Below are positions 8,311 to 25,960 of a stretch of DNA of 64,000 nucleotides, one piece after another (the first letter of the stretch is position 1; every line of letters begins with the position of its first letter). Under the pieces are notes generated by a model. That model was given only the letters and a program-made list of their open reading frames with translations, did not search any database and had not been told where the DNA came from. Position numbers and translations under genes: made by a program. Origin of the DNA: Naegleria gruberi (taxonomy: Eukaryota); the NCBI GenBank assembly GCA_000004985.1, contig GG738927.1. One strand, written 5' to 3'.

Positions 8311-8382
8311 TCGGGTGTGGTATAGTGGTAGCATTCCAGACTGTCACTCTGGCGACCCGGGTTCAATTCCCGGCACTCGAGA
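8311..8382 (+). tRNA. tRNA-Asp (anticodon GUC)
   Basis: tcgggtgtggtatagtggtagcattccagactgtcactctggcgacccgggttcaattcccggcactcga. The 7-bp acceptor stem pairs TCGGGTG with CACTCGA. The anticodon loop CTGTCAC gives anticodon GTC. The T-arm is CCGGGTTCAATTCCCGG. The sequence resembles eukaryotic tRNA-Asp. Confidence 0.9.
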
Positions 8383-8730
8383 TTGTTTTTTAACCTTATT
8401 TCTAACATTTGAGTTTTAATTTTGTTGTCATATGAAGAAATATGTGTTGTGTATCTATCTGTAAAATTTCAAAGTCTCATCTCTTAAAACAATCAAGAAA
8501 ATAATCACAGATTAAACTCTTTCAGTTTTGCGGAAAAATTCGAAGCTCAAATAGCTTGTCTTCGAACCTTGTTCCTCTTCTAATGCTCTCCAAATTGGCC
8601 AAGTTGTGTTTTTAAAAACAAGGCCTAATACTTTTTGAAATCTTCTCCAACCATTACTTTCTATCTATTTTCTTCAGATGTATATTACCATACACAAAAA
8701 CTATTCTAGAAATCTATTTGCAAAATTATC

Positions 8731-8802
8731 CTCCCATGCCGGGAATTGAACCCGGACCTCCTGGGTGAAAGCCAGGTATCCTAGCCATTGGACTACACGG
8801 GA
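8731..8802 (-). tRNA. tRNA-Glu (anticodon UUC)
   Basis: The reverse complement reads TCCCGTGTAGTCCAATGGCTAGGATACCTGGCTTTCACCCAGGAGGTCCGGGTTCAATTCCCGGCATGGGAG. The anticodon loop CTTTCAC gives TTC. It has the classic tRNA-Glu D and T arms. It is convergent with tRNA-Asp, about 350 bp away. Confidence 0.9.
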
Positions 8803-9014
8803 ATCTTATTTATCTAGAAAAAAATCCTTTCCTAAAACTGGAATCTTTCTGTAATTGCATAATTTCTTTCTAAATAAACATCGTTAAATAACCGTGTTCC
8901 AATCTTGACTTGCTCTCTCTTTTTACTTCTGTTTTAGTTGTAGAAATTTCAAAAAGTGTGTTTCTCTTTTTTATTTACAATATTTTCGCAAAAGTAAGGG
9001 AATTTACAGGGTGG

Positions 9015-17172: not shown

Positions 17173-17243
17173 GCGTCGATGGTTTAGTGGTAGAATACGG
17201 CGTTGCCATCGCCGTGACCCGGGTTCAATTCCCGGTCGACGCA
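17173..17243 (+). tRNA. tRNA-Gly (anticodon GCC)
   Basis: GCGTCGATGGTTTAGTGGTAGAATACGGCGTTGCCATCGCCGTGACCCGGGTTCAATTCCCGGTCGACGCA. The anticodon loop TTGCCAT gives GCC. The acceptor stem pairs GCGTCGA with TCGACGC. Confidence 0.9.
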
Positions 17244-17872: not shown

Positions 17873-18655
17873 ATGCGACCAACAACACTCCAATCACTCT
17901 CAGTATTACTTCTGATAACAATTGTACTCTACATTATTAATTGCATTACTATCAAGGCAAAGGCAAATAATAATTCAATTATTTTGGATGAAGGAAAATT
18001 TGTAAAATTACTAAGACATGGTCAAGCCTATCATAATTTATTAGGTGATGCAAATATTAGAGATCCAACACTTACTCCGAAAGGAATTGAACAATCACGT
18101 CAAGTTAATTCTTTATTTGTGGAAGTGAATGATCAATTAAATACTCATTACAATAATATTAAAGAATTGGAATTTAGAAAGTATTTAATTATTGTATCAC
18201 CATTAAAGAGAACTATTGAAACTGCTATTTATGCTTTATCTGCTCAATTTATAAAAATTGATGGAAAATGTAATACATTGAAAGATTGTATTAAAGTATT
18301 ACAAAAATATAATATTAAATTATTATTACAACCTTTAATACAAGAAAGAGAAGCAGGTAAATTACCATGTGATACAGGTGTTGAATTGAAACAATTGGAC
18401 GAAGAATTTTATCAACATGAATTTAATATTTTAAATACTACTTTTATGGAAAGTAAATGGTATGAACCAAAAATGGAAATTAGAGAAAGAATGGAAAAAT
18501 TTAAATATTGGCTTGATTCATTGAATGATAGTAATAATATTATTATATTTACTCATCATGGATTTTTAATGGAATTGACAAATGGAATGGAATTTGAAAA
18601 TTGTGAAATGAAAAAATTTGTATTTAAAGAAATGAAATTAATTCCAACAATGTAA
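17873..18655 (+). CDS. Histidine phosphatase superfamily protein (phosphoglycerate-mutase-like branch) with an N-terminal signal anchor
   Basis: The first ATG is at 17873 (MRPTTLQSLSVLLLITIVLYII...). The catalytic RHG motif appears in LLRHGQAYHN. SPLKRTIETA matches the SPLxRAxQTA pattern. A second His lies in IFTHHGF. Confidence 0.7.
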   Translation: MRPTTLQSLSVLLLITIVLYIINCITIKAKANNNSIILDEGKFVKLLRHGQAYHNLLGDANIRDPTLTPKGIEQSRQVNSLFVEVNDQLNTHYNNIKELEFRKYLIIVSPLKRTIETAIYALSAQFIKIDGKCNTLKDCIKVLQKYNIKLLLQPLIQEREAGKLPCDTGVELKQLDEEFYQHEFNILNTTFMESKWYEPKMEIRERMEKFKYWLDSLNDSNNIIIFTHHGFLMELTNGMEFENCEMKKFVFKEMKLIPTM

Positions 18656-18785
18656 ATTGTATATAACTAGTTATTAATCATTAATAAACTATAGATGTAG
18701 TTCTATTATCACGGTAGTAACACAAAATATCACAAATTAATTGTTAAAAAAATAAATTATTGTGTTTACGGGATAATTTAAAAAA

Positions 18786-18903
18786 GACTACAGCACCACA
18801 GGTTCCCAAGTTGTCTCCAACCTCAGTACTGATGTGGCTCGACGATGCTTAACTTCTCAAATCGGACGGGATGAGGTGCATTCATCGTGATATGGCCGTA
18901 GCC
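18786..18903 (-). rRNA. 5S rRNA gene, copy 1
   Basis: The reverse complement reads GGCTACGGCCATATCACGATGAATGCACCTCATCCCGTCCGATTTGAGAAGTTAAGCATCGTCGAGCCACATCAGTACTGAGGTTGGAGACAACTTGGGAACCTGTGGTGCTGTAGTC followed by TTTTT. It matches the eukaryotic 5S consensus (GCCTACGGCCATACCAC...GGTGCTGTAGGC). Helix I closes. A T-run terminator is present. Confidence 0.85.
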
Positions 18904-18964
18904 ATTCATTACATTAAAATGTGAAATATAAAAAATATGAAACCATTTTTATTAATATAATTTA

Positions 18965-19879
18965 TTAATATTTTAAATCTAATAATTCTAAATTGGAAAT
19001 TTCATTCATTCCACTATCAGAAATTTCACTTGAATAAACTTCAAGTTGTTTGAGTTTCTTTAATTTTGCAAAATGAAGGATTGAATCTCCGATAATATTG
19101 TGACTAACCTTTAATACTATTAAATTACTCAATTTGGAAATATTTATAAATGCTTCGGAAGTTAATTTGCATTCATTAACATTTAAATGTTCTAATTTAA
19201 ATAAATTATTACAAATTTCCATTGATAGAAATGAATTATCAATATTATTATTGTGAAAATCTAAAAATGTTAAATTTGTCAAATTAGAAATTGAATTTCC
19301 AGAATTGGAAATTAAATTATATCCAGTGGAAAGAAATTTCAATTTTTTCAAATTTGAACATATTTGATAAAAACCTTCATTTCCAATATTATTATCACCA
19401 ATTGATAAACTTGTTAAATTTCCTAATTTGGAAATTTCCTTAGCCCCCTCATCCGTTATATTATTGCACCAAACATCAAGACTTTGTAATGTTTGAATAC
19501 TAGCCAATAACTTTGCACCCTCAACACCAAGTTTACTCCAACAAACATTTAAACTCGTAATATTAGCAATTCTACTAGAAATGTAAAGAAGGCTAGTTAT
19601 CGGTTTGGAATATAAATTAAAATGATATGAAACTCTATTAAATATTAACCAATTAAATTGTTTGCAAGTGAGCGAACATGCAGAGATTAATTGTTTCTTA
19701 TTAAGGAATTGAAAAATTTCACACCACAAATCATCACAAATATATTTAGTGGTGGTATTAATATTACTATAATTATTTGTATTATTATTGGTAGTAGTAT
19801 TAATAAATGATAATTCGTACAACATTTTTAGAGTTTGAGAATTTGAATTTTTGGTTTTTTTTCTAAGAATTTCGTTCAC
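18965..19879 (-). CDS. F-box/LRR protein (RNI-like LRRs)
   Basis: F-box-like YICDDLWCEIFQFLNKKQLISACSLTCKQFNWLIF. LRRs of the ribonuclease-inhibitor type follow (NNITDEGAKEISKLGNLTSLSIGDNNIGNEGF...). The real ATG is probably about 19825. Confidence 0.6.
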   Translation of the reverse strand: MNEILRKKTKNSNSQTLKMLYELSFINTTTNNNTNNYSNINTTTKYICDDLWCEIFQFLNKKQLISACSLTCKQFNWLIFNRVSYHFNLYSKPITSLLYISSRIANITSLNVCWSKLGVEGAKLLASIQTLQSLDVWCNNITDEGAKEISKLGNLTSLSIGDNNIGNEGFYQICSNLKKLKFLSTGYNLISNSGNSISNLTNLTFLDFHNNNIDNSFLSMEICNNLFKLEHLNVNECKLTSEAFINISKLSNLIVLKVSHNIIGDSILHFAKLKKLKQLEVYSSEISDSGMNEISNLELLDLKY

Positions 19880-20585
19880 AACATGAGTTTGCCTTAATAT
19901 TGATCATATTTTCATGTTGTTAATTATGTATCTAAGATGGGACCTTAGAATCTCACAATCCTATGGATAATAACAATTAATTCAAAAGAATGTTATGTAT
20001 TATCTATTTTTAAAACATTATGTTGAAGTCTAAATTTCAATATTGAAAACTGTTGATTAATTTAGAAACCAACAAAACCACAATAACAATTTTATTTTCT
20101 CTCTTCTCCATTCCAACACCATATTTTACGACTAGATATATTGAGAATTACAAATAGTTACCATTAAATGGAACAACAGACCAGCAAGTCAGTAATCTCC
20201 CTGAGGAGATTACTTACTACTGGTAAAGTAGTTGGGAATGGGGAGAAAGGATTTAAAAGAAGTCCTTACTCAACATATCCCGATAAGATGAACTGTATGT
20301 AATTCTTTTGCATATTTTTATAAATTTAATTTTATAAAAAATAAAAGGAAATTAAATTGTCCGTCTGTGGAATGTAGACGAAACTTGTAATTTTGATTAA
20401 ATTCTTCAATATTGAGACTGAGGAGAAAATAGTTCAAGAATGAAGATTTCATTTTTGAATATTCGAATCGATTTTCACAACTCCTCAAGTCCTGTGAATT
20501 CTCAATGTGAGCTTTTCATTAATTTTCCTATCTGAAAGTTAAAAAATTTTCCTTTTCACAACCGAAACAAACAAGAAAAAACGAA

Positions 20586-21654
20586 ATGACTCAATTTCCT
20601 ATGGAAAATGTCTTTCCATCATTCTATTGTGAATGTTATCCTCACACGAAAGGAAAGGATCATTACAACATTGCAATTGCTTTAATCTTTCGTCAATGTT
20701 TCTATTCGAATTCAGATGTGGCAAGTTATGTGATTGGATGGTTGAGTATTCTTACTAGTATGATTAGTTTATTTCCACAAATTATTAAGAATTTCACATT
20801 GAAATCCTCAGCTGGCTTATCAATTTATGTTTTTGTAATTTGGATGATTGGTGATATTACTAATCTTGTTGGGTGTATTTTGACTAATCAATTAGCAACA
20901 CAGATTTATTTGGCAGCTTATTATGTTGCAATGGATGTGATTATTATTTCACAATATATTTGGTATGAGTTCAAGTTTGAACAGTTTAAGAAGTTGTTGG
21001 AAAGAGTTAGAAATTGGAAGAAATCAAACGAAAGTTCAAAGCATGCAACTTCATCTCTACAAACTAGCACAAGTGGATCTACATCTACTGAAATGACAAC
21101 AACTCAAAAGACCATTCTTCCTTCTCACTATTTACCCAATTTGTTAACTCTAATTATAGTAATATTGATGATTGTAATGGCAGAATTGACTCAAGGTGAA
21201 GAGGAAATAATGATGATGGTGCAGAGTTGTGTTTCATCCACTGAACAACCTCAATATTTATACATTTTGGGAATTGTTTGCTCATACATTTCATGTATCT
21301 GTTATGTTGCAGCACTAGCTCCACAAGTTTACAAAAATTATAAAAGAAAAGGAGTGAAAGGTCTTTCAGTAAGTTAATTCTTAAATGTCACGTTTCAAAC
21401 CAATTGTTCAGCTCTTAATGTTTTTAATTGATGAATTAACTCAAATCCTGTACATTGTCAGTATTATTGTTGCGTATGGACAGGAGGATGCAGTGTTTGA
21501 TCCAATATCTGGAGTACCTTATTTACTTGGAAGTGTTGCAACCTTTGGTTTTTCTTTCATTATTGCCTGCCAATTTTGGTATTATAAAAAGAAGAACAAT
21601 ACTCCAATTCAAGAGATGCCACAAAATGATCCACAATCTGTTGAAAATAAATAA
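20586..21654 (+). CDS. PQ-loop repeat (cystinosin/PQLC2-like) 7-TM transporter. Two exons: 20586..21368 and 21412..21654. Intron is 43 nt.
   Basis: First PQ-loop: LFPQIIKNFTLKSSAGLSIYVFVIWMIGDITNLVG. Second: LAPQVYKNYKRKGVKGLS, then the intron (GTAAGT...TTGTTCAG), then LLMFLIDELTQILY. The GLSLL junction matches the PQLC2 pattern. Both exons are phase 0. Confidence 0.7.
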
Positions 21655-21718
21655 ATTTCTCCTTGTTTTCCTTTTAAAATCGAATATAGAACTATTGTGA
21701 AGAAATGTTACAAGTTTA

Positions 21719-23749
21719 TTAATAACTGTAAATATCAGCACTAACAGCTTCAGATTCACAATCACATTCATCAGTACCTCTCTTAATCTTACTAAAATAT
21801 AATTATTTGATTAATAATCATGAATAAATTAATAACTTACAAGAAACCTATTGAATTAAAAAATATTTTAACATGTTCATGAAATTGAATATTCCAAATT
21901 AATTGATAATTGATTAATAACTCAAAAATCACTCATAAAAACGTACCGTTAATTCCCCATGATGTACCCCATGAATTCTTAACTAACCAATATGGAACTC
22001 CATTTTCTTCACCCCAACCAACAAGCAAAACAGCATGGTTAGTTTCTTCCCAACCTGGTTCAGCAATCTTGGTCTTGAGAGCAGTTGAGTGAGTGTAAAC
22101 ACCTCCCTTATAATTGAAAAAGTCATCATAGACTTCAAATGCAATAGCAAGTGGACCTCCATGATACAATTCATACATCATATTCTTAGCATTAGTAGCT
22201 CCGTAAAAACCTCCAGTGTAGGCATAGTTAGTACCATAAGCTCTCTTTGGACATTGATCCTTCTTACAGACACTATCAACACCCTTGTATGGATCACATG
22301 ATTCTTCAGCCAAACCATAATCTTCAGCATACTTGGAAACCAAATACATGAAACCACCATCACATCTACAGATATTGTTTAGTTAGTTACCAAGATCTGA
22401 TTGATGGTGAAAAATAAACTTACCCTTGAGAATATGCGGAACATTCAACAATATCTTGTGGAGAATAAACTGGTGTCTTAGTACCATTAGTAATAACACG
22501 AACTCTACTGCCAAACATGTCACTTGAACTGAACGCATAGCAACTTCCGCAGACTTACCATATTTGGTAATTCAAAATAAATAAGTTTCCATATTTGATC
22601 AATTCAAAATATAAATAAAAAAAAAAAAAAAAAAAAAAAATAAAAAAAAATAAAAAAACATACACCTTGATTTCTGACTGGAACAACCAAATTCATGCCA
22701 TTAACATTGGTCCAGGAGAATTCCTTTGGCAATGCATTAACATCTTCTTCAGTAATAATCTTCTTGTTACCATTAACTCTTGCTTGAGTTTGGAAAATAG
22801 TTTGGAATCTTTCCTTTTGAGCCTTCAAAGCAGCCTTACGATTCTTGTTAGCAGTACGACCACCAGCAATTCTTCTCATAAATTCGAGAGATTTACCTTC
22901 AAATTGTGGATAGGCAGTAGCTTGCCACATCTTTTGACTCTTGTTAATAGTATTAATCTTTTCCATATTATTGGTAAAGACCTTATTCTTCAAGTCAACC
23001 TTTGGAGCAGACATGAGTTCATGTTCATGAGTGGATTCAGATGGAGCACCAGTTCTAATACCTCTGAAACAACCGAACTATTTCAATCATCATCACGATC
23101 ATTCAATTTTGTTAAAAGTTATTGTAAAATAGGTTGAGAATAGAAACAAACCTTCTTAACAGCAATACCAGCATCATGATACCAACCAGTGAAGGTTTGA
23201 CCACAGTTACTAGTAACAACCTTTCCTTGTTGGGTATAATTGAAGAAGGCGAAATACTTTTGCTTGTTAATAACAACTTCAAAGCCTTGATCCTAATTTT
23301 GTATAAATAATGATATGATGATGACGATGATGATAATATAATGTTTGTATTAATATTTGGTTCATGATAATAAAGTGCGTAATGATTAATATATTAATAC
23401 ATGATAATGATGAATGATGATGAATAATTAAAATATTAATATAAAAAATGATGAATAATTTAAAACGTACATAAATCAAAGTCCAGAAGCCTTCATTTCC
23501 TTGTTCATCATAAACAACATCAGGAGCCAACAATCTCAATTTAATAGTGTCAACATTAACATTAGGAAGAGGATTAGTCAAAGCACAAGTATTATGAACA
23601 ACATCATTAGAGAATGAAGTTGAGGTACGATAGAAGGTCCAATCACCGAAAACTTGATGGAACAAGCAATGGACAGGGATATCACCGTTGACCATCACAA
23701 CCAAACCACACAATAAGAGTGTGGAAATGATTACTTGAGAAATTTTCAT
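21719..23749 (-). CDS. Cathepsin C / dipeptidyl peptidase I homolog (papain family, C1). Seven exons on the minus strand, approximately 23749..23471, 23292..23152, 23077..22666, 22553..22424, 22365..21947, 21847..21841 and 21791..21719.
   Basis: A signal peptide is followed by the exclusion domain (DIPVHCLFHQVFGDWTFY...YDEQGNEGFWTLIY | DQGFEVVINKQKYFAFFNY...TGWYHDAGIAVKK | FGCFRG...). The catalytic region reads LPKEFSWTNVNGMNLVVPVRNQ..CGSCYAFSS...ECSAYSQGCDGGF...VYDDFFNYKGGVYTH...TNHAVLLVGWG...[33 protein letters not shown]. The match to human cathepsin C is residue-by-residue. Introns carry GTA(A/C)GT...AG signals. Confidence 0.85.
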
Positions 23750-24570
23750 TTTTTTTTAATTCAATTGAGTTGAAAGGAACTTTTGGGGTTTTGAACTCCG
23801 GAGGTGGAGTTTTGAATGACCTTATTAATCCAATATGATTGATCAGATATTGAATTTACAATATGTGTTGATTTTGTTTCTTTCGTTTATTATTGAATAA
23901 GGACCTCTTTAATGGTAAGACCATTTAAGTTTTTCATTTCAGTGGTTCCAATCTATCTTATTTCTATTCTTTGAAATTCAACAATCAATGTTAAATAACA
24001 ATAAAAGATGAAATTATTAATAGTATTTAATTAATTCAACACCTTCAATAATTTTCATCACTTTCAAAATTCAAATTCTATTAATAATCTTCTCGTTTGT
24101 TCCCATCACCTTAAATATTCCAACAACACTACATGTTGCACAATATATTTCTATCAATCCAAAAAAAAAGAGCAATGAAACGAGAATTGGCCAATCTTTC
24201 ATGTTCCTCTGATTCCAATCAAACTAATAGAGATTATAATGGCAATAATTCATTCATGAGCATGAAGAGAGTTAAAACCAATGAACCGTTACGTGCTCGT
24301 TTCAATACTCGACAAATCATTCCATACAAGACTAGAAACATTCAACAATAATAAATACTCCTTTCTCAATGAACCATTCTTCAATCTCTTGTTGCATCAA
24401 GAGATTAAAAATCTCCAATCACTAAATCTCTTCTCTGGAATGAATTGAAAATATTACAAAAAAAAACAACAAAAAGCTTCCGAAGGCTTTGCAAAAAATC
24501 TTCTTCTTCGTTTAAATCAACAACAACTGCTACATCTCAGGTGTCTCTACTTTAGGAACAATAAGAAAAA

Positions 24571-25503
24571 ATGGGTTTTCTTAGTCAAGAACAAATTGAT
24601 CAATTTAATGAACAAGGCTTTCTCGTGTTTGAAAATTTCATTGCCGAAGAAATGATTAAAACTCTTCGGGACGAAATTAAAACAATTGTTGAGAAGGATT
24701 TTCATCCTAATCAAAATCACTCTATATTTTCAACTTATAAACAAGATTCAAAGAGAGATTTGGACAGGTATTTTGATCAATCCATTGATAATATTTCCTT
24801 CTTTTTAGAAAAGAGTGCAAATATTGATCCGAATACAGGTGAATTAAAGCAAGATAAATTTACTTGTATTAACAAGATTGGACATGCTATTCATGATCAA
24901 AATAAGGTATTTAGAGAGTTTTCCCATCAGGAAAGTTTATTCGAAATAGTCAAGACACTCTCACAATTCGAAAGACCATTGCTTTTGCAAAGTATGGTCA
25001 TATTTAAACAACCTTTCATCGGAGGTGAAGTTATAGCTCATCAGGATGCAACATTTTTGTATAATGAATTGGATGAAAATGAAAAGGAGAAACCTGTGAT
25101 TGGTTGTTGGTTTGCATTGGAAGATGCAACAACAAAGAATGGATGTTTATATGTGTTGCCAGGATCTCACAAATGGGGATGCGTAAAGAGATGGGAACGT
25201 ACACCAATAGAGAAAGAAAATGGTTCAGTTGAATATGAAATGAAAATGAGAGTGGAAAAACCTGATTTATTGCCATACACTACAGAAATGGACTATGATC
25301 ATGACAAGTATATTAGTGTTGAAGCAAAGAAGGGCACTTTGATTATATTGCATGGATATTTACTTCACAAGAGTTTTGAGAATACTAGTGAAAAATCAAG
25401 AGAAGCTTACACACTTCATATTTTGGATTCTTCTAGACCTCTTTCAAAGAAATCATGGATTCAACCAAAGAGAAAACTAGTTAATTATTATTATGAGAAA
25501 TAG
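24571..25503 (+). CDS. Phytanoyl-CoA dioxygenase (PhyH) family 2OG-Fe(II) oxygenase, PHYHD1-like
   Basis: 310-aa single-exon ORF. The HxD iron ligand lies in EVIAHQDATFLYN and the distal His in LHGYLLHKS, with PhyH-fold spacing. Confidence 0.7.
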   Translation: MGFLSQEQIDQFNEQGFLVFENFIAEEMIKTLRDEIKTIVEKDFHPNQNHSIFSTYKQDSKRDLDRYFDQSIDNISFFLEKSANIDPNTGELKQDKFTCINKIGHAIHDQNKVFREFSHQESLFEIVKTLSQFERPLLLQSMVIFKQPFIGGEVIAHQDATFLYNELDENEKEKPVIGCWFALEDATTKNGCLYVLPGSHKWGCVKRWERTPIEKENGSVEYEMKMRVEKPDLLPYTTEMDYDHDKYISVEAKKGTLIILHGYLLHKSFENTSEKSREAYTLHILDSSRPLSKKSWIQPKRKLVNYYYEK

Positions 25504-25573
25504 AATGTACATATAAAAAATAAATCATTGATTGTGTTCATTGGATGATTTATTATTATTAAGAATTAAAAAA

Positions 25574-25691
25574 GACTACAGCACCACAGGTTCCCAAGTT
25601 GTCTCCAACCTCAGTACTGATGTGGCTCGACGATGCTTAACTTCTCAAATCGGACGGGATGAGGTATATTCATAGTGATATGGCCGTAGCC
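25574..25691 (-). rRNA. 5S rRNA gene, copy 2
   Basis: Same 118-nt sequence as copy 1, with 3 substitutions in the loop B/helix III region. It lies in the same orientation 6,788 bp away. TTTTTT terminator. Confidence 0.85.
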
Positions 25692-25960
25692 AATCTTTAC
25701 CTTAATTTCTGAAAGCAATGCCTTATCAAAAATTGATTCCTCGAGAGAAGGTTTGAACTTCACATTCCTAGAAACAAATTCAACGAATCTCGGTACATAT
25801 TTTAAATATAGTTTGCCAATTTGGAAACTTTATTCACATAACTCATTGGTGAAAATTTCCAAATTCTGTTGCTCGATATTCTTTTGAAAAAGAGCCCTTC
25901 CTTCATAATCCAATTCTTTAAGAAAGAAATTTCTCTAGCGTAATATATTGCATAGTAGAT

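Follow-up and report, generated by a model that had tools for sequence, protein, structure and literature searches.

The analyzed stretch of DNA, referred to here as the window, comprises 64,000 nucleotides at the start of Naegleria gruberi scaffold_83 and contains two genuine full-length 5S rRNA genes on the minus strand, copy A and copy B (Table 1). Both genes span the whole RF00001 model of Rfam (120 positions) with scores far above the gathering score of 38 bits, and these matches are unaltered in a permissive Rfam scan. The copies differ at exactly three nucleotides, G/T at position 18, G/A at position 25, and C/T at position 26 (A/B; gene identity, 97.5%), and are spaced by 6,788 bp enclosing four protein-coding genes or open reading frames (ORFs). 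A first-pass annotation had described two minus-strand 5S genes 6.8 kb apart, with three differences and a T-run terminator each; all of this is borne out, the gene limits agreeing within 1 nt.

Table 1. Features of the window bearing on the two 5S rRNA genes (positions in the 64-kb window)
Feature	Position	Strand	Remarks
tRNA-Asp	8311-8381	+	Confirmed
tRNA-Glu	8730-8803	-	Confirmed
tRNA-Gly	17173-17243	+	Confirmed; 1.5 kb from copy A
Downstream block of copy A, with second T-run	18747-18778	-	Common to copy B
T6 run, Pol III terminator of copy A	18780-18785	-	Read in the sequence; the Rfam match ends on its first T
5S rRNA, copy A	18785-18903	-	RF00001, 105.4 bits, model 1-120
Upstream block of copy A, -1 to -23	18904-18926	-	TTTCACATTTTAATGTAATGAAT; 17/23 match to copy B in register
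Downstream block of copy B, with second T-run	25515-25550	-	Common to copy A
T6 run, Pol III terminator of copy B	25568-25573	-	Read in the sequence
5S rRNA, copy B	25573-25691	-	RF00001, 99.6 bits, model 1-120; variant with T18, A25, T26
Upstream block of copy B, -1 to -23	25692-25714	-	TTTCAGAAATTAAGGTAAAGATT; nearest to the N. lovaniensis copy (GAAATTGGGTAAATGAAT)

Gene structure and genomic setting

The architecture is that of type-1 RNA polymerase III (Pol III) genes, with internal box A and box C at canonical positions and at least four T residues directly 3' of the gene. Box A (positions 50-64) matches the consensus perfectly and the box C-like element (positions 80-97) shows two mismatches in 12 specified positions, both judged against the consensus strings given in Feng et al. 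2012, PLoS One 7:e36878. The consensus of the intermediate element is too degenerate to inform. The consensus helices comprise no non-standard pair in copy A and one in copy B.

The ORF at 24571-25503 corresponds exactly to N. gruberi XP_002669380, and two further ORFs of the window to XP_002669378 and XP_002669379. The protein search with the LRR-protein neighbor of copy A returned neither a self-match nor a close relative; for the PQ-loop neighbor, the sister-strain contig L022 ends about 1 kb before copy A. All three tRNA genes of the earlier annotation, including the tRNA-Gly close to the 5S genes, were recovered.

Both 5S genes are present in the published catalogue of 279 putative N. gruberi 5S genes (Feng et al. 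2012, PLoS One 7:e36878), where Table S1 lists copy A as R33421 (scaffold_83 18784-18900) and copy B as R33705 (scaffold_83 25572-25688). The same paper describes N. gruberi 5S genes as unlinked to rDNA and as having, besides the internal control region, a TATA box upstream, and reports that TFIIIA was not found in N. gruberi by BLASTp/PSI-BLAST. According to our own parse of Table S1, the 279 genes are spread over 117 scaffolds with a median gap of 34 kb, a minimum gap of 462 bp, and a single gap below 1 kb; gaps of 10 kb or less number 42 versus 18 ± 4 expected, disclosing loose clustering. These coordinates contain no tandem 5S array genome-wide, nor do copies A and B form a head-to-tail array. 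The 6.8-kb pair is thus typical of a family that is dispersed with loose clustering, although Table 1 of the same paper scores the arrangement as tandem, a summary contradicted by its own coordinates.

As to the rDNA linkage check proposed earlier, Rfam detects no SSU, LSU, or 5.8S sequence across the whole 64 kb with a cutoff as lenient as E ≤ 0.05, and the Naegleria rDNA plasmid is a circle of about 14 kb with 18S/5.8S/28S only. Copies A and B therefore belong to the known family of dispersed chromosomal 5S genes, lying among protein-coding genes as first described and unlinked to 18S/28S rDNA. Since both genes and their dispersed, rDNA-unlinked arrangement were already published in 2012, the earlier statement that this genome organizes 5S differently conveys no new information. 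Dispersed 5S families are already known in fungi and other protists, so that dispersal has little weight as a discovery; the statement of the rDNA-plasmid literature that Naegleria has no nuclear rRNA genes overlooks about 279 chromosomal 5S genes.

The upstream and downstream blocks

The similarity between the copies extends beyond the gene on both sides. Downstream, a block of about 35 nt that includes a second T-run, possibly a backup terminator, is common to both (local alignment score 30 versus a null of 17.3 ± 3.7, p ~ 0.013), and was found at no other sampled 5S locus. Upstream, no local similarity was found between the copies from -24 to -113 (p = 0.65), their identity being at background (about 47%) by -60 to -100. 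Because the similarity is bounded at about -23 on one side and about +40 beyond the terminator on the other, the pair most likely derives, as judged from sequence, from local duplication of a small unit of about 180-200 bp. The earlier description of unrelated flanks stands for the region upstream of -23, but not wholly for the downstream side.

Immediately upstream, the copies share 17 of 26 nt, as counted in the first-pass annotation, and these amount to 17 of 23 over -1 to -23 in an ungapped comparison anchored at the gene start (flank identity, 74%). This exceeds chance, with an empirical p of 3.5e-5 against random segments of the window and about 1e-4 against AT-rich segments only. The block consensus is roughly TTTCAGAAWTTAAnnTAAWGAAT, followed by GGC.

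Further loci were sought by two routes. A search for spurious ORFs with antisense-frame 5S peptides yielded three new usable upstream flanks and no more, several contigs (L023, L026) breaking off at the gene. A 5S DNA pattern matched 14 metagenome contigs, of which L010 alone is Naegleria-type and the rest are from another eukaryote, with 0 matches in viral contigs and 0 in prokaryotic genome bins. The motif rests on five independent upstream flanks. Three independent loci, (i) N. lovaniensis, (ii) L024, and (iii) L010, were scored at the 17 positions identical in A and B, and together match 27 times versus 15.5 expected (p = 4e-4). This stricter in-register test is preferred over a shifted ungapped comparison with A or B, which is weak (p = 0.42 for L010 and p = 0.06 for N. 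lovaniensis). A gapped end-anchored test returns p = 0.008 for N. lovaniensis, whose flank stops at an N-run at -21, and p = 0.001 for L024. Taken alone, L010 falls short of significance (p ~ 0.15). A third, more distant species displays no block upstream of its 5S gene (p = 0.62). No 5S gene occurs within 10 kb of the orthologs of PhyH, the gene adjoining copy B, in N. fowleri (three assemblies), Willaertia magna, or a metagenome contig, and gene order is not kept at these orthologs. The position of copy B is thus not conserved in N. fowleri or Willaertia, and the cross-species similarity of the block is not a matter of flank orthology.

Two other upstream signals were considered and rejected. 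A TATA box as the common element finds TATAT only in copy A, at about -28 to -24, and none in copy B, the published TATA box corresponding to one example gene (Feng et al. 2012, PLoS One 7:e36878). A general Pol III element, common to all the Pol III genes of the window as had been implied, fails at the tRNA-Asp, tRNA-Glu, and tRNA-Gly genes, where the block is absent. The block itself appears to be partly inherited from the duplicated unit while also recurring at unrelated Naegleria-type 5S loci and in N. lovaniensis, and is a plausible candidate for a genus-specific Pol III promoter-proximal element at -23 to -1. The earlier reading of an upstream Pol III promoter therefore gains from this recurrence, but loses the part of the A/B similarity that reflects common descent, and is kept as a candidate only.

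The strongest competing explanation, to which we give roughly one chance in three, is that the upstream similarity is a functionless relic of one duplicated segment of about 200 bp, recurrence elsewhere reflecting recent paralogy or gene-conversion tracts that spill into the flank. The common downstream block indicates that the duplicated unit exceeded the gene, the flank is far less conserved than the gene itself (74% versus 97.5%), as would be the case for unconstrained sequence, and the sister-strain ortholog of copy B, L020, has lost 6 nt (AAGGTA) within the block, a deletion that points either to decay of copy B or to spacing being unimportant. In addition, L010 is not individually significant, the third species is devoid of the block, and L024 and L010, both from the N. 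gruberi complex, may be paralogs of recent origin. A relic would nevertheless leave three observations to be accounted for: the N. lovaniensis copy, in an unrelated gene neighborhood, still carries GAAATTGGGTAAATGAAT directly upstream (gapped p = 0.008); the upstream block recurs at other loci and the downstream block at none; and the combined in-register comparison remains at p = 4e-4. Going beyond the candidate element, a more tentative proposal, somewhat less probable than the relic, is that Naegleria 5S genes depend on the genus-specific element at -23 to -1, which would position TFIIIB/Pol III and might partly replace TFIIIA recognition of the internal control region. If true, 5S transcription in Naegleria would be closer to an upstream-promoter mode, either type-3-like or hybrid.

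A canonical copy and a probably drifting copy

Copy A has the canonical N. gruberi 5S sequence. The 5S gene of sister-strain contig L023, although at a different locus, has the same sequence (100% identity) and that of L010 differs by 1 nt; copy A is presumably a working gene. The 5S genes of N. lovaniensis and the third species differ from copy A by compensatory or unpaired changes only, with 0 broken pairs, the compensatory pairs being 68/107, 2/117, 3/116, and 19/59. Copy B, on the other hand, contains one broken helix pair, U18-C60, its changes at 25 and 26 keeping the pairing. Its sister-strain ortholog (L020, 1201-1319) shows two further substitutions, at 26 and 73, with two broken pairs in total, position 26 having changed again and disrupting another pair; its terminator T-run is one T shorter than that of copy B and the second T-run is disrupted. 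The between-strain rate of copy B (2/118) stands against 11/315 in intergenic and 2/244 in coding DNA, too few sites to separate the classes statistically. Given the helix-breaking substitution and apparent evolution without the constraint of canonical copies, copy B would be weakly functional or decaying.

Might copy B instead belong to a separate class of functional 5S variants, such as a stage-specific one? Xenopus has stage-specific oocyte and somatic 5S types and Naegleria has distinct life stages; copy B still scores high in Rfam, with box A, the box C-like element, and the T-run all retained, and two of its three changes preserve pairing. However, the third change breaks a helix pair, L020 has changed further at 26, with another broken pair, and at 73 and is missing part of the upstream block along with the second T-run, and the B-type substitutions occur at no other sampled 5S locus. 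We consider such a variant class improbable.

Joint reading and relation to known systems

Altogether, the observations are best accommodated, with a probability of about 0.85, by a joint reading in which copies A and B are members of the known dispersed family, arose by duplication of a small unit, and comprise a presumably working copy A and a weakly functional or decaying copy B, with the upstream block part inherited and part recurring. Chance similarity is very improbable; the local intergenic DNA has about 25% GC and TTAAnnTAA-type A/T words occur 0.33 times per kb per strand, but the fixed-register match of 17/23 persists under the AT-rich-only null and the independent loci contribute p = 4e-4. 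Hardly any credence is left for a Dictyostelium relative whose 5S genes have left the rDNA palindrome for dispersed chromosomal sites, a framing inherited from the first-pass annotation, in favor of which are AT-rich DNA and proteins with poly-N/poly-Q tracts and LRR repeats of dictyostelid appearance: three ORFs are exact N. gruberi RefSeq proteins on a scaffold of 174,313 bp, the 5S coordinates are those published for scaffold_83, N. fowleri, Willaertia, and Acrasis supply the closest orthologs, and the organism is a heterolobosean with its rDNA on a circular plasmid.

By analogy with established type-1 Pol III genes, copies A and B, the probable products of local duplication of the unit of about 180-200 bp, would act as separate Pol III units, each starting at its first G under the direction of its internal control elements and ending at the T6 run, and the block at -23 to -1 may serve as a promoter-proximal or start-site element that helps to place TFIIIB and Pol III. 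The description of Feng et al. 2012 includes neither the block nor the probable duplication of a small unit nor the putative drift of copy B. The upstream block is the only fresh point and may help to start transcription; shared by N. gruberi and N. lovaniensis, it offers a testable Pol III promoter candidate in a lineage reported to be without TFIIIA. The A/B pair together with the sister-strain ortholog illustrates family turnover, in which a small unit would be duplicated locally and one of the copies would then decay.

Among known systems, the dispersed 5S genes of Neurospora crassa and Schizosaccharomyces pombe are said to carry short conserved 5' elements, TATA-like near -29 in Neurospora. 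Naegleria resembles these fungi in having some 100 or more single 5S genes among protein-coding genes, with their own Pol III signals and variant or putative pseudogene copies, and with flanks unrelated except for a short conserved upstream stretch; in contrast, Naegleria belongs to a different supergroup and its block is nearer the gene (-23 to -1), is not a TATA box, and is a candidate only as to function. The 5S genes of Arabidopsis thaliana reportedly have upstream a TATA-like motif at -28, GC at -12, and C at -1. Naegleria shares with Arabidopsis the type-1 internal promoter and, as a candidate, a position-fixed upstream element near the start, whereas Arabidopsis has its genes in tandem arrays and other motif sequences. 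Finally, the large rRNA genes are extrachromosomal in both Dictyostelium discoideum and Naegleria, two unrelated organisms, but the 5S genes reside on the rDNA palindrome in D. discoideum and are chromosomal and dispersed in Naegleria.

Two chromosomal 5S rRNA genes and their surroundings

The full Rfam RF00001 model recovers both 5S rRNA genes, copy A and copy B, far above its gathering score (38), confirming the minus-strand pair reported by the first-pass annotation as 6.8 kb apart, different at 3 nt, and each followed by a T-run. The copies lie 6,788 bp from each other with protein-coding ORFs in between, differ at positions 18 (G/T), 25 (G/A), and 26 (C/T), and carry a T6 tract directly 3′ of the gene. 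Both copies retain intact internal promoter elements, box A (50-64, perfect match) and a box C-like element (80-97, with two mismatches), and are standard members of a type-1 Pol III gene family with no departure seen. A permissive Rfam scan of the whole window disclosed, beyond the two 5S genes, only the three tRNA genes that had been claimed, with tRNA-Asp and tRNA-Glu forming a divergent pair ca. 350 bp apart (8311-8803).

Features of the window and of related contigs
Feature	Sequence	Coordinates	Strand	Basis or remark
tRNA-Asp	window	8311-8381	+	Rfam scan
tRNA-Glu	window	8730-8803	-	Rfam scan
tRNA-Gly	window	17173-17243	+	Rfam scan
ORF	window	17873-18655		exact match, N. gruberi XP_002669378
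Downstream block, copy A	window	18747-18778	-	
5S copy A	window	18785-18903	-	RF00001 full model, 105.4 bits
LRR ORF	window	18965-19879	-	304 codons
ORF	window	20586-21377		exact match, N. gruberi XP_002669379
ORF, phytanoyl-CoA dioxygenase (PhyH)	window	24571-25503	+	exact match, N. gruberi XP_002669380; contig of 174,313 bp
Downstream block, copy B	window	25515-25550	-	
5S copy B	window	25573-25691	-	RF00001 full model, 99.6 bits
5S locus L024, sister strain	ENA ERZ929261	1-1354		92 bits; 2-nt insertion and T-to-C change
5S gene, N. lovaniensis (L025)	PYSW02000026.1	10102-10220		
Kelch-domain model P0173	PYSW02000026.1	10001-10933		285 aa

The nearest orthologs occur in N. fowleri, Willaertia magna, and Acrasis kona. 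The proteins look superficially dictyostelid, but a dictyostelid origin is ruled out by the three exact N. gruberi matches. The best relatives of the phytanoyl-CoA dioxygenase outside Heterolobosea are bacterial (Acidobacteria/Pyrinomonadaceae, ca. 45% identity), and this gene may be of bacterial origin, judging from protein similarity. The LRR ORF ends 61 nt upstream of copy A; a protein-collection search returned neither a self-hit nor a close relative, and the consecutive RefSeq entries XP_002669378 to XP_002669380 pass over it; it may be a gene missed in annotation or a pseudogene.

In a survey of the N. gruberi assembly, Feng et al. 2012 (PMC3369914) catalogued 279 putative 5S genes. They described them as located away from the rDNA units, with a TATA box preceding the gene in addition to the internal control region, and found no TFIIIA homolog. 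The coordinates of entries R33421 (scaffold_83 18784-18900) and R33705 (scaffold_83 25572-25688) of their Table S1 are those of copies A and B; the window therefore spans scaffold_83 from its start to 64 kb, and neither copy is new to the catalogue. The chromosomal, rDNA-unlinked location of 5S in this genome is established, and the finding is real and already known, the upstream block discussed below being a small testable addition. Since the large rRNA genes of Naegleria (single 18S, 5.8S, and 28S) reside on a circular extrachromosomal element of ca. 14 kb, the initial comparison with the D. discoideum palindrome was misplaced. The statement in PMC5805870 and related rDNA-plasmid papers that rRNA genes are absent from Naegleria nuclear DNA misses the ca. 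279 chromosomal 5S genes.

The parsed 279 entries of Table S1 (PMC3369914) spread over 117 scaffolds, with a same-scaffold neighbor spacing of 33.9 kb (median) and a minimum of 462 bp. Only one gap falls below 1 kb, and tandem arrays are therefore absent, although Table 1 of the same paper states "tandem arrangement: Y", contrary to its own coordinates. Gaps of 10 kb or less number 42, where random placement would give 18 ± 4, and for 79 genes a neighbor lies within that distance; the A/B pair is a typical example of such loose clusters.

Origin and divergence of the pair

Additional copies were gathered indirectly, by means of (i) a 24-nt core of the 5S gene scanned against metagenome contigs, (ii) the PhyH protein cluster, and (iii) an antisense-peptide search. 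The scan returned 14 contigs with one 5S gene apiece, of which L010 is the sole Naegleria-type sequence, 1 nt from copy A, the rest coming from another eukaryote. In the latter (L006-L009, L011-L013, L015, L017, and L018; VFQM/VFQO), each 2-7-kb contig (33-38% GC) bears one 5S gene, by eye roughly three-quarters identical to that of Naegleria; a pyrimidine-rich, TTTCTTC-like stretch closes the upstream flanks, and the flank pairs L012/L015 and L006/L009 are clearly related. The 90%-identity PhyH cluster led to L020, a contig from a sister strain within the N. gruberi complex, which aligns collinearly with the region around copy B (96% column identity) and bears the 5S ortholog of that copy. 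Around the PhyH orthologs of N. fowleri, Willaertia, and one metagenome contig, gene order is different and no 5S gene occurs within 10 kb.

Read in antisense, the 5S gene has an open frame of 34 codons; the corresponding peptide, used as query, retrieved spurious ORFs called over 5S genes, whose contigs were fetched. These comprise L023 (sister strain; another locus, with the same 5S sequence as copy A and no upstream flank retained), L024, the N. lovaniensis contig, L026 (N. fowleri-type; 5S cut at its 5′ end), and L027-L029, three loci from a third species that is more distantly related. Within its 1.35 kb, L024 displays a cluster of tRNA-Glu, 5S, tRNA-Met, tRNA-Glu, and a partial tRNA. The N. 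lovaniensis Kelch-domain model starts with the antisense-translated 5S gene, which looks like an annotation artefact masking an RNA gene.

Beyond the gene, copies A and B share only positions -23 to -1 and a downstream block of ca. 35 nt (local alignment p ~ 0.013), displaced in copy B by a 16-nt insertion, whereas the local alignment of -24 to -113 reveals no similarity (p = 0.65). The earlier view that no large block was duplicated is thereby borne out; on sequence grounds, the pair looks like the product of duplicating a small unit, about 180-200 bp long, in keeping with the surplus of closely spaced 5S pairs across the genome. A second T-run (ATTTATTTTTT), perhaps a backup terminator, lies inside the downstream block of both copies, 30-55 nt beyond the primary terminator; in the L020 ortholog of copy B this run is disrupted.

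Copy A forms every consensus pair. The N. lovaniensis and third-species genes differ from it at 5 and 12 positions, respectively, all compensatory or unpaired, with no pair broken. In copy B, U18 faces C60 and breaks a helix pair, while the changes at 25 and 26 retain pairing; its L020 ortholog shows a further change at 26 that breaks a second pair, a change at 73, and a terminator one T shorter. Between strains, the copy B gene accumulates 2/118 substitutions compared with 11/315 in adjacent intergenic and 2/244 in flanking coding sequence, all small counts. Because structure-breaking changes are confined to the B lineage among all sampled 5S genes, we conclude that copy A is probably the canonical working gene and that copy B appears to be under relaxed constraint.

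The upstream block

The first-pass annotation had proposed a shared upstream motif with 17 of 26 nt in common; the count holds, and all 17 identities fall within the 23 nt from -1 to -23, aligned without gaps from the gene start (empirical p = 3.5e-5 with random segments of the window as the null, ~1e-4 when the null is restricted to AT-rich segments). Identity declines to background by -60. The consensus reads TTTCAGAAtTTAAnnTAATGAAT followed by GGC, with A-17, T-14, and T-1 invariant. A TATA box was rejected as the shared element, a TATA-like TATAT at about -28 being found in copy A only.

Recurrence was assessed by deriving the pattern from copies A and B and testing it on the other loci, with the 17 agreeing positions compared in fixed register without shifts. 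Matches amount to 11/17 in L024 (p = 0.006), 8/17 in L010 (p = 0.15), and 8/14 in N. lovaniensis, where an N-run masks the remainder (p = 0.15); combined, 27 matches are observed versus 15.5 expected (p = 4e-4). End-anchored alignment with small gaps gives p = 0.001, 0.14, and 0.008, respectively, the N. lovaniensis sequence GAAATTGGGTAAATGAAT aligning to GAAATTAAGGTAAAGATT of copy B, and a looser earlier comparison of the same loci gave a weak signal. Taken together, these loci favor recurrence of the proposed motif; no signal is seen in L027-L029 of the more distant species (p = 0.62), and the tRNA genes of the window lack the block. Directly 5′ of the mature end, tRNA-Asp and tRNA-Gly share ATGTGAA, unlike the 5S block.

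Two readings of the block stand at roughly even odds. Across the five flanks compared, a promoter-proximal or start-site element kept by selection would be the most economical account. Alternatively, the block may be a mere relic of the A/B duplication, devoid of function, as suggested by the internal 6-nt deletion tolerated in the upstream block of L020, a probably decaying copy. Against this, the N. lovaniensis 5S gene lies amid unrelated genes and only A and B have the downstream block in common, so that simple descent of the flanks fails to explain the cross-species recurrence.

Neurospora crassa and S. pombe possess dispersed 5S families with short conserved 5′ elements, and by analogy would share the mode of working of the Naegleria genes; in Arabidopsis, upstream elements supplement the internal 5S promoter. 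The closest known system is the N. gruberi 5S gene set catalogued by Feng et al. 2012.
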